In this document: piece after piece, positions 5,533-37,162 of the stretch
Layout of the letters: every line of letters begins with the position of its first letter
How positions within the stretch are numbered: the stretch's first letter is position 1
DNA from: Octopus vulgaris
Lineage: Eukaryota
Assembly: GCA_951406725.2 (NCBI GenBank)
Contig: OX597819.1
Coordinates: 16,988,001 to 17,052,000, forward strand
Direction of reading: 5' to 3'
DNA: 64,000 nucleotides
Made by a program: the position numbers and the translations under genes
Notes under the pieces: generated by a model
The model's database searches: none
Seen by the model: the letters and a program-made list of their open reading frames with translations, nothing else
What the model was told of the DNA's origin: nothing

Positions 5533-5827
5533 ATATGGGCACAGGACCTAAACAGCGTGAATAACATGAAAAACGAGAACAGGAAAAAAAACATGGAAAA
5601 CGAAAGAAACAAATAGAGAAACGCGACAGGTGACATAAAGAACAATCCCTTCATCAGTTGTCCTCTGTTTTATCTACTCCGCGTTTCGAACGCTTGGGAC
5701 AAGACGCGTCTTCGTTAAAACATTCGTTCCTGCAAAGCAAATTAAATAGAATTTGAGATTTTTTGCAGAGGGTTAAAGTGATAAACAAAAACAAGACAGT
5801 AAGAACAAACCAGTATGTACCAAAACA

Positions 5828-5830
<3 letters not shown>
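5533..5830 (-). mobile_element. Short (TA)n-embedded element, family A copy 1 (probable PLE pseudo-LTR derivative)
   Basis: Homologous to 7350-7810 and 29457-29920, flanked by (TA)n on both sides, and contains the permuted hammerhead. Confidence 0.65.
5647..5722 (-). ncRNA. Putative non-circularly permuted hammerhead ribozyme with k-turn (intact copy)
   Basis: Minus RNA: UGUUUUA AC GAA GA CGCG UC^UUGUCC CAAGCG UUC GAAA CGCG GA GU AGA UAAAACA GA GGACAA CUGAUGA A GGG. Perfect stem I (UUGUCC/GGACAA) and stem III (CGCGU/ACGCG), 3-bp stem II, intact CUGAUGA, GAAA and GUC. Confidence 0.7.
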
Positions 5831-29456: not shown

Positions 29457-29920
29457 TATGGGTATAGGACGTCACCAGCAGTACAAATAACATGAAATAC
29501 GTAAACAAAGGAAGGAAAAACGAGTGGAATACTTGAACAACGAGATAGAAGGGAAAATAGGACAAGTAAACAGAGAGAAAAGCCCCTTCATCAGTTATCG
29601 GTTGTCTGTCTGCTCCCCATTTCGAGCATTCAGCGACAATAGGAGTCTTCAAAGACAGTTGCTCCCATAAATTCTAAAATAAAATTTTGGGTTTATGGAG
29701 GGTCAAAGTTGGGAACAAAAAAAAAAAGTGACAGTGGAGACATACAAGGAAACCGAACGAAAACAAACATAGAGGGTCGTTAGACCGGAACGAGAGGAAA
29801 ATAGTGAACGCTGGGAGAAACAATTTTTTGGAAAGAGAAAAGATAGAAGAGAGAGAAAGAGAGAAAACACGTCCTTTCCTTTAAATGTCCGTGCAGGAAA
29901 AGAAAGAGGGTCACCCAGAC
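29457..29920 (-). mobile_element. Family A divergent copy 3, permuted hammerhead at 29584-29658
   Basis: Same order of motifs as copies 1 and 2, flanked by (TA)n on both sides. Confidence 0.6.
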
Positions 29921-36572: not shown

Positions 36573-37162
36573 AAATAGTTAAAAATAATAAATAGAGATT
36601 GATAGAAGACCAACTATAGAAGACTCAGAGAAAATAGTTAAAAATAATAAATAGAGATTGATAGAAGACCAACTATAGAAGACTCAGAGAAAATAGTTAA
36701 AAATAATAAATAGAGATTGATAGAAGACCAACTATAGAAGACTCAGAGAAAATAGTTAAAAATAATAAATAGAGATTGATAGAAGACCAACTATAGAAGA
36801 CTCAGAGAAAATAGTTAAAAATAATAAATAGAGATTGATAGAAGACCAACTATAGAAGACTCAGAGAAAATAGTTAAAAATAATAAATAGAGATTGATAG
36901 AAGACCAACTATAGAAGACTCAGAGAAAATAGTTAAAAATAATAAATAGAGATTGATAGAAGACCAACTATAGAAGACTCAGAGAAAATAGTTAAAAATA
37001 ATAAATAGAGATTGATAGAAGACCAACTATAGAAGACTCAGAGAAAATAGTTAAAAATAATAAATAGAGATTGATAGAAGACCAACTATAGAAGACTCAG
37101 AGAAAATAGTTAAAAATAATAAATAGAGATTGATAGAAGACCAACTATAGAAGACTCAGAGA
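36573..37162. repeat. Minisatellite, 10 identical copies of a 59-bp unit
   Basis: Unit AAATAGTTAAAAATAATAAATAGAGATTGATAGAAGACCAACTATAGAAGACTCAGAGA starts at 36573 with period 59 and no spacers. Confidence 0.95.

Follow-up and report, generated by a model that had tools for sequence, protein, structure and literature searches.

The DNA motif that an earlier note read as a kink-turn lies in a dispersed repeat of the octopus genome whose RNA is best explained as a probable self-cleaving hammerhead in the order S-G-C, with a predicted four-way junction at A9/G10.1 and with the k-turn letters in a freely varying joint of its stem III arm. The order of the blocks, the size of the repeat family, the covariation of the helices, and the variability of the joint are all established directly. 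Here, "the window" denotes the whole 64,000-nucleotide stretch of DNA that was analysed. The labels for subfamilies (A-J), for strands (a-e), and for hairpin P0 are our own.

The repeat family and its hammerhead core

The repeat unit is approximately 0.7-0.9 kb in length, has no ORF, and occurs singly, head-to-tail, or inverted between (TA)n runs. The copy in the window is decayed, matching the majority of its sub-lineage at 185 of 196 bases. Its core elements are as follows.

5540 to 5829, minus strand: repeat copy, 5'-truncated, of the dispersed ORF-less type, between (TA)n runs
5708-5704 with 5684-5680, minus strand: stem III
5704 to 5708, minus strand: 3' strand of stem III, ending in U16.1; 4 of 5 pairs change on both sides
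5703, minus strand: C17, with predicted cleavage between 5703 and 5702
5697 to 5702, minus strand: 3' strand of stem I; 4 of 6 pairs change on both sides, and 94.8% are paired
5680 to 5687, minus strand: G12-A13-A14 and the 5' strand of stem III (block G)
5663-5658 and 5657-5651, minus strand: 5' strand of stem I and the CUGAUGA box, respectively

Hammerhead positions (A9, G10.1, C11.1, H17, and so on) are given in the usual hammerhead numbering.

A first survey of the source genome, which is 2.8 Gb in size and rich in microsatellites, yielded 2,415 candidates, 40 of which were scored. A pattern that fixes only two core boxes finds at least 4,908 copies, compared with 4 for the reversed control. 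The first 100 of these 4,908 matches form our unbiased sample; 2 of them look like chance matches, and 62 keep the upstream part of the repeat. The tree calculated from the 3' flank alone (63 rows, at most 7 per subfamily) resolves two clades with support, A-D and E-H; branches are shortest in subfamilies G, H, and E3. Since the copies are related to one another, cell counts overstate the number of independent events, and it is the approximately 13 subfamilies in two clades that carry the signal.

The window holds a second copy of the repeat, of the subfamily C type, at 29563-29712 on the minus strand, in which strands e and a, P0, and both core boxes are recognisable and the stems are decayed. 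It also contains, at 36573-37162, ten identical head-to-tail copies of a 59-base unit. Elsewhere in the genome, three loci (L097, L064, and L036) each combine copies of different subfamilies within a single array, tandem or inverted, a pattern suggestive of template switching or of several insertions into one and the same microsatellite. Among the pattern matches found in metagenome (9) and viral (5) collections, none of the 14 has this architecture; the patterns reach near relatives only, and these collections contain few animal genomes.

From 5' to 3', the repeat presents the cleavage site, the GAAA box, and the CUGAUGA box, which is the non-circular order S-G-C. The U16.1-A15.1 pair is present in 61 of 63 sequences, and position 17 in 62 copies is A in 23, U in 24, C in 15, and G in none, such that the NUH rule is held. 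CUGANGA and GAAA boxes appear in the majorities of copies that were selected by similarity, where they were not fixed by the pattern. At least 9 of the 11 pairs of stems I and III are kept in 75 of the 100 fetched copies, a few of which are truncated copies that parse by chance, as compared with 6.6% when the upstream part is shuffled. Judged by its sequence, the RNA borne by the repeat is likely a self-cleaving hammerhead.

Might the fold be non-catalytic, or no longer catalytic, and persist as a structured relic used as a handle in reverse transcription? This would be in keeping with the lack of any excess of truncations at the predicted cleavage site: only 5 of 98 5' truncations fall within approximately 5 nt of it, with boundaries that are blurred by microsatellites. 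We consider this reading quite improbable given that diverged subfamilies keep the core boxes, the U16.1-A15.1 pair, and the NUH rule, and that the changes in their flanking helices compensate one another. A search of the window against Rfam returned no match at the gathering score, and near the site it returned only miRNA matches driven by microsatellites. An HDV-like fold was rejected as well, as its loop and P1 strands do not fit when compared by eye with the consensus.

The joint in the stem III arm

The k-turn-like motif of the window copy occupies 5722-5666 of the minus strand, where the following elements can be distinguished.

5722-5716 with 5672-5666, minus strand: outer helix, 7 bp
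5716 to 5722, minus strand: 5' strand of the outer helix; its closing C-G pair at 5723 is lost in the window copy
5709 to 5715, minus strand: 5' strand of the joint (AC, GAA bulge, and GA)
AC 5715-5714 with GU 5677-5676, minus strand: AC/GU helix
5713-5711, minus strand: GAA bulge, which is also the GAA half of the AGUA/GAA motif
GA 5710-5709 with GA 5679-5678, minus strand: tandem GA; 5709 is k-turn position 2b, which varies freely
5673 to 5679, minus strand: 3' strand of the joint (GA, GU, and AGA); in the other register, AGUA at 5678-5675, closed by G5674-C5714
5675-5673, minus strand: AGA bulge
5666 to 5672, minus strand: 3' strand of the outer helix, 2 nt from stem I here and 0-1 nt in subfamily majorities
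5665-5664, minus strand: 2-nt linker from the outer helix to the 5' strand of stem I

The earlier note had described the outer helix, the AGA bulge, the AC/GU helix, the GAA bulge, and the tandem GA, and all of these elements are present where it placed them. It was likewise right that the letters of the window copy fit the definition of a standard k-turn, in which a 3-nt bulge is followed by G.A and A.G pairs (PMC5061560); as in the Kt-7, box C/D, and U4 k-turns that this source describes, a C-G pair lies 5' of the bulge. Such letters arise in only 0.19% of 200,000 shuffles of the two arm segments, so the match in the window copy is not trivial. The same letters also permit a second register, in which C5714-G5674 closes a 5x5 loop with AGUA opposite GAA, and which arises in 0.43% of arm shuffles. 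The nearest-neighbour energy is -12.7 kcal/mol for the AGUA/GAA register versus -10.5 kcal/mol for the k-turn register, neither of which values scores non-canonical motifs.

We then compared the joint across the family. The adenine at 2b accepts one of the two near-universal hydrogen bonds of the k-turn, and the non-standard k-turns described in the same source (PMC5061560) vary at 2n rather than at 2b. Exact copies of the window's own subfamily, counted with a 19-base pattern, have A at 2b in 7 cases, U in 155, C in 3, and G in none, and the 62 unbiased intact copies have A in 26, U in 22, G in 10, C in 3, and a gap in 1. The letters of the bulge are kept and 2b is variable, which is the reverse of what is expected of a k-turn. 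A census of the joint covered 198 copies, 43 of which are without the upstream part and 13 of which are unclassable. Among the 142 classed copies, which include ones chosen for their likeness to the window copy, 27 have the k-turn letters and 11 have them together with a 2-bp C helix; for the unbiased part, the corresponding numbers are 7 of 56 and 0 of 56. The second pair of the C helix is Watson-Crick in 2 of 54 copies of subfamilies B, C, and D. The family departs from the standard k-turn described in PMC5061560 in its variable 2b adenine, in a C helix that amounts to one pair in B-D, and in the absence of the motif in k-turn polarity from E-J. In subfamily H (42 exact copies, the 30 shown being nearly identical), the joint has a pyrimidine bulge and no G.A tandem, and in the youngest subfamilies it is a plain bulge or a reversed G.A loop.

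These data bear on the proposal that a conserved k-turn kinks the joint, returns the arm to stem I, and binds a protein of the L7Ae/15.5K type that tunes cleavage. Agreement with it can be found in the perfect letters of the window copy, in an A at 2b in 7 of 7 members of the small sub-lineage to which this copy belongs and in 11 of 14 copies of subfamily C, and in an AC/GU helix that is pairable in 60 of 61 copies of subfamily A, the window's own. Furthermore, E (7 of 7), E2 (2 of 3), and J (12 of 23) have a G.A tandem with a bulge of 2-3 nt, in the opposite polarity, so kinking may be one recurring solution. However, the GA/GA pairs are not conserved in the family, an outcome that the earlier note had itself named as refuting, 2b is only rarely A in the exact copies, the second C-helix pair is almost never Watson-Crick in B-D, and the motif is missing from H and G, which are subfamilies with the shortest branches. 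A conserved k-turn with L7Ae-type modulation of cleavage is therefore very unlikely; restricted to the small sub-lineage containing the window copy, the k-turn reading could still hold. Across the family, the k-turn letters fall in a freely varying joint of the stem III arm and are not a conserved motif. As for the idea that a kink folds the arm back, its conserved k-turn is lost, but the outer helix and the spacing of 0-2 nt to stem I stand: every subfamily has an outer helix at that spacing together with an asymmetric loop or bulge, which makes a bendable joint plausible.

The conserved letters of the window's clade likely fit an AGUA/GAA loop better than a k-turn. AGUA/GAA is the sequence of the sarcin-ricin motif (PMC1865062), for which loop sizes of 5x4 or 6x5 are described in PMC8450098. 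The constant letters in clade A-D are GAA, AGUA, and the closing C-G, while the adjoining stem III differs between subfamilies. The AGUA/GAA letters are intact in 68 of 115 A-D copies and in 0 of 27 E-H copies, the majorities of A1, A1x, A2, B, C, and D1 have the exact letters and a Watson-Crick closing pair, and part of subfamily D loses the bulged G. The loop measures 5x5 in the window copy, A1x, B, and C, and 6x5 in D1. It thus resembles the sarcin-ricin or loop E (bulged-G) motif in its letters and closing pair (PMC1865062, PMC8450098), and differs from the motif as described in PMC8450098 in that the 5x5 loop has one spare nucleotide; nor do subfamilies E-J of the repeat family have AGUA/GAA. 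The joint of the window's clade likely folds as a sarcin-ricin-like AGUA/GAA loop with one spare nucleotide, and the other subfamilies would solve the joint by a reversed G.A loop or a plain bulge. The GAAG(A/U) letters of subfamily A are plausibly a relic of a duplicated GAAA box.

In every subfamily the asymmetric loop or bulge lies 5-6 bp away from the core, an outer helix is present, and a spacer of 0-2 nt leads to stem I. The 5' strand of the arm is 14-16 nt in all 12 subfamily majorities that parsed cleanly, despite their differing loops; D2, with 2 copies, did not parse. Given that the joint differs between subfamilies while this geometry is kept, selection likely acts on the length and flexibility of the arm rather than on a protein-binding kink.

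Stem II and the predicted four-way junction

Upstream of the arm, the repeat contains further strands that pair with the flanks of the core boxes.

5769 to 5774, minus strand: strand e; 5772-5769 pairs with strand c just after the CUGAUGA box
5730 to 5768, minus strand: hairpin P0, arms 5768-5762 and 5736-5730, with an AU-rich loop; abuts e and a with no linker
5725 to 5729, minus strand: strand a, which pairs with b; its first G is the would-be G10.1, and it is the predicted 5' strand of stem II
5688 to 5692, minus strand: strand b, 3' strand of stem II, ending in C11.1; a 4-nt linker (5696-5693) separates it from stem I
5647 to 5650, minus strand: strand c (A, then GGG), which pairs with e in the best model and with b in a rival model

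When a six-helix model is applied to 63 aligned sequences, 91.2% of cells are paired, as compared with 78.6% for shuffled and 39-45% for slid strands, and 18 of the 29 pairs change on both sides. The outer helix, whose register the aligner shifted between clades, is not part of this count and was read per subfamily instead. The strand before GAAA covaries with upstream strand a, which directly follows P0, which in turn directly follows e. In helix a-b, which is 5-6 bp long, both-sided changes are seen in 3 of 5 pairs, the fourth of which, within subfamily A, is G-C in 18, C-G in 13, and mismatched in 7 of 38 copies. They are seen likewise in 5 of 7 pairs of P0, whose mean pair probability is 0.78-1.0 in all 11 subfamily majorities that were folded. 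For e-c, the inner 4 bp are paired in 97.6% of cells and vary on one side only, the next pair is A-U in 31 and C-G in 24, and the outer two pairs, paired in 66.7% of cells, both change on both sides. The P0 loop (window 5753-5740, minus strand) holds a U-rich motif around one A that is kept in 60 of 62 copies while the stem changes; no partner for it was identified.

The earlier note implied a stem II formed by the G run and the strand before GAAA, but this helix (c-b) has just 3-4 bp, most of them G-U. The calculated duplex energies are -4.9 to -8.0 kcal/mol for a-b, -5.3 to -10.3 kcal/mol for e-c, and +0.1 to -2.6 kcal/mol for c-b. A hairpin c-d, at -0 to -3.9 kcal/mol, is a weaker competitor of e-c. 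None of the named helices appears when the window copy is folded in nested form, with probabilities of no more than 0.09; stem I and a-b cross other helices and could not be scored together in a nested fold. When the nested part of the model is forced on 11 subfamily majorities, it lies 0-8.6 kcal/mol above the minimum before stem I and a-b are added.

A search for copies with a changed G run gave 426 matches and led to subfamily J, with 23 exact copies. In subfamily J, 3 nt separate A9 from the G run; e has gained an A and c a U, and these are pairable. A 2-nt linker lies between P0 and a, and a-b is unchanged. The strands were counted in 21 (c), 19 (b), 17 (e), and 16 (a) of the 23 copies. 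These changes speak for helix a-b being stem II, with the pair G10.1-C11.1, and for a four-way junction at A9/10.1. Copies with a changed 10.1-11.1 pair were also sought: there were 165 matches with a purine at 11.1, and none of the 30 loci read has a matching change in strand a, so these copies look like decay.

The rival model is that of an ordinary type-SGC hammerhead, in which c-b is stem II, the A of strand c is an extra nucleotide after A9, as described at the A9/10.1 step of hammerheads of Penelope-like elements (PLEs; PMC4209133), and a-b with e-c forms a stable off state, making the RNA a switch. In its favour, c-b is pairable in 96% of cells, although the search pattern fixed the G run and C11.1. 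We nevertheless regard this model as unlikely, since only 1-2 pairs of c-b are Watson-Crick and its energy is several kcal/mol less favourable than that of a-b and e-c combined, and since subfamily J would need a 3-nt insertion after A9. In neither model is block C uninterrupted (with at most 1-2 nt inserted): its partner lies upstream in the best model, and 3 nt follow A9 in subfamily J in the rival one. Possible pairings for a helix joining the two flanks of block C are visible by eye.

Active form, relatives, and significance

In the favoured a-b model, stem II would keep the G10.1-C11.1 pair, the chain would exit after A9 via helix e-c, and P0 would form the fourth arm. At their ends away from the core, the outer helix and stems I and II would meet in a second junction with linkers of 0-5 nt. 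Predicted cleavage after 5703 would free unit-length RNA from tandem transcripts of a retrozyme-like element; processing of tandem transcripts has been proposed for PLEs (PMC4209133) and for retrozymes (bioRxiv 10.64898/2026.07.22.740005). We see about an even chance that the whole of this describes an active four-block hammerhead: non-circular in order, with a break at A9/G10.1 that opens a four-way junction and a second junction that closes the distal side, present in an animal genome in thousands of copies, and with its joint solved variously as an AGUA/GAA loop, as a k-turn-like loop of either polarity, or as a plain bulge.

Hammerhead stems II and III stack coaxially (PMC4209133), and therefore a monomer would need the arm to turn back sharply; this turn-back is the sound part of the earlier kink idea. 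Alternatively, the active form could be a head-to-tail dimer, in which a second copy supplies stem I and strands a and c and the arm runs nearly straight, an arrangement that is compatible with the four-way junction. In its favour, the monomer, with stems II and III stacked, would have to make a U-turn although hardly any unpaired nucleotides are available as linkers; the dimer is described as the working form of metazoan PLE hammerheads (PMC4209133); the repeat also occurs in tandem units; and the sequence of the joint is unconstrained. On the other hand, most copies are single, only 4 of 30 subfamily H loci having a same-strand neighbour within 1.5 kb, and stem III is not palindromic outside subfamily A. 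Taken together, we view the dimer as a less probable but serious candidate.

Like PLE hammerheads and non-LTR retrozymes (PMC4209133; bioRxiv 10.64898/2026.07.22.740005), the repeat is ORF-less and occurs in tandem and inverted arrangements, and its RNA, like that of the PLE hammerheads, has an A and a G run after CUGAUGA (PMC4209133). Unlike them, as these two sources describe them, it is not of type I and circular order. The unit here is also approximately 0.7-0.9 kb, and we found no linked RT/GIY-YIG partner. PLE coding sequence lies near 1 of the 92 ribozyme loci and near 1 of another 46, antisense in both cases and in one separated by another repeat. No autonomous partner was found, and 29 of 29 other endonuclease loci are without the repeat's ribozyme. 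At L257 (6181-7824, minus strand), a 548-residue frame with a Pfam RVT_1 match runs antisense to two tandem copies of the repeat, with another short repeat between. A separate Penelope-like family (L202, L206, L209-L211, L214-L219, L223, L224, and L226) has, approximately 250-400 bases past the endonuclease match, a hammerhead core of the ordinary type I in which an extra A follows CUGAUGA.

The closest precedents are the type-SGC hammerheads, which according to Eckert et al. (2023; PMC10085705) are reported only from metatranscriptomes, with block C intact. Apart from one GCS candidate, that study detected none in the genomes of known organisms, and it assumes that block C is never interrupted. 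The repeat shares with type-SGC and HRIMA-1 RNAs (PMC10085705) the S-G-C order, a short linker between stem I and the 3' strand of stem II, and the puzzling direct connection of a helix to the far end of stem III. It differs from the type-SGC RNAs described there in its thousands of copies in an animal genome and in that the 5' strand of stem II apparently lies upstream, via a four-way junction, in the best model. The main text and one supplement file of PMC10085705 contain neither "kink" nor "k-turn". Hammerhead variants with additional helices have been reported (PMC13725137), and term searches of PMC10162972 and PMC3088659 found short core insertions and no four-way junction of the A9/10.1 type. 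Neither an animal SGC hammerhead nor an A9/10.1 four-way junction was found in the literature searched, which is mostly open-access. The novelty would thus lie in the architecture of the host RNA, a non-circular hammerhead with an interrupted CUGANGA block in an animal genome, and the k-turn would be a weak lead.

If this architecture is correct, non-circularly permuted hammerheads, so far placed on unassigned metatranscriptome contigs, would gain a home in an animal genome; the CUGANGA block could no longer be treated as uninterruptible, as the working rule has it; and the range of hammerhead forms would be widened. Searches with descriptors that rely on this rule would then overlook an entire set of ribozymes. 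Whether SGC ribozymes act as monomers or dimers was left open by Eckert et al. (PMC10085705), and the approximately 13 natural subfamilies with their different joints are a ready series for studying this question and the folding of the cage.
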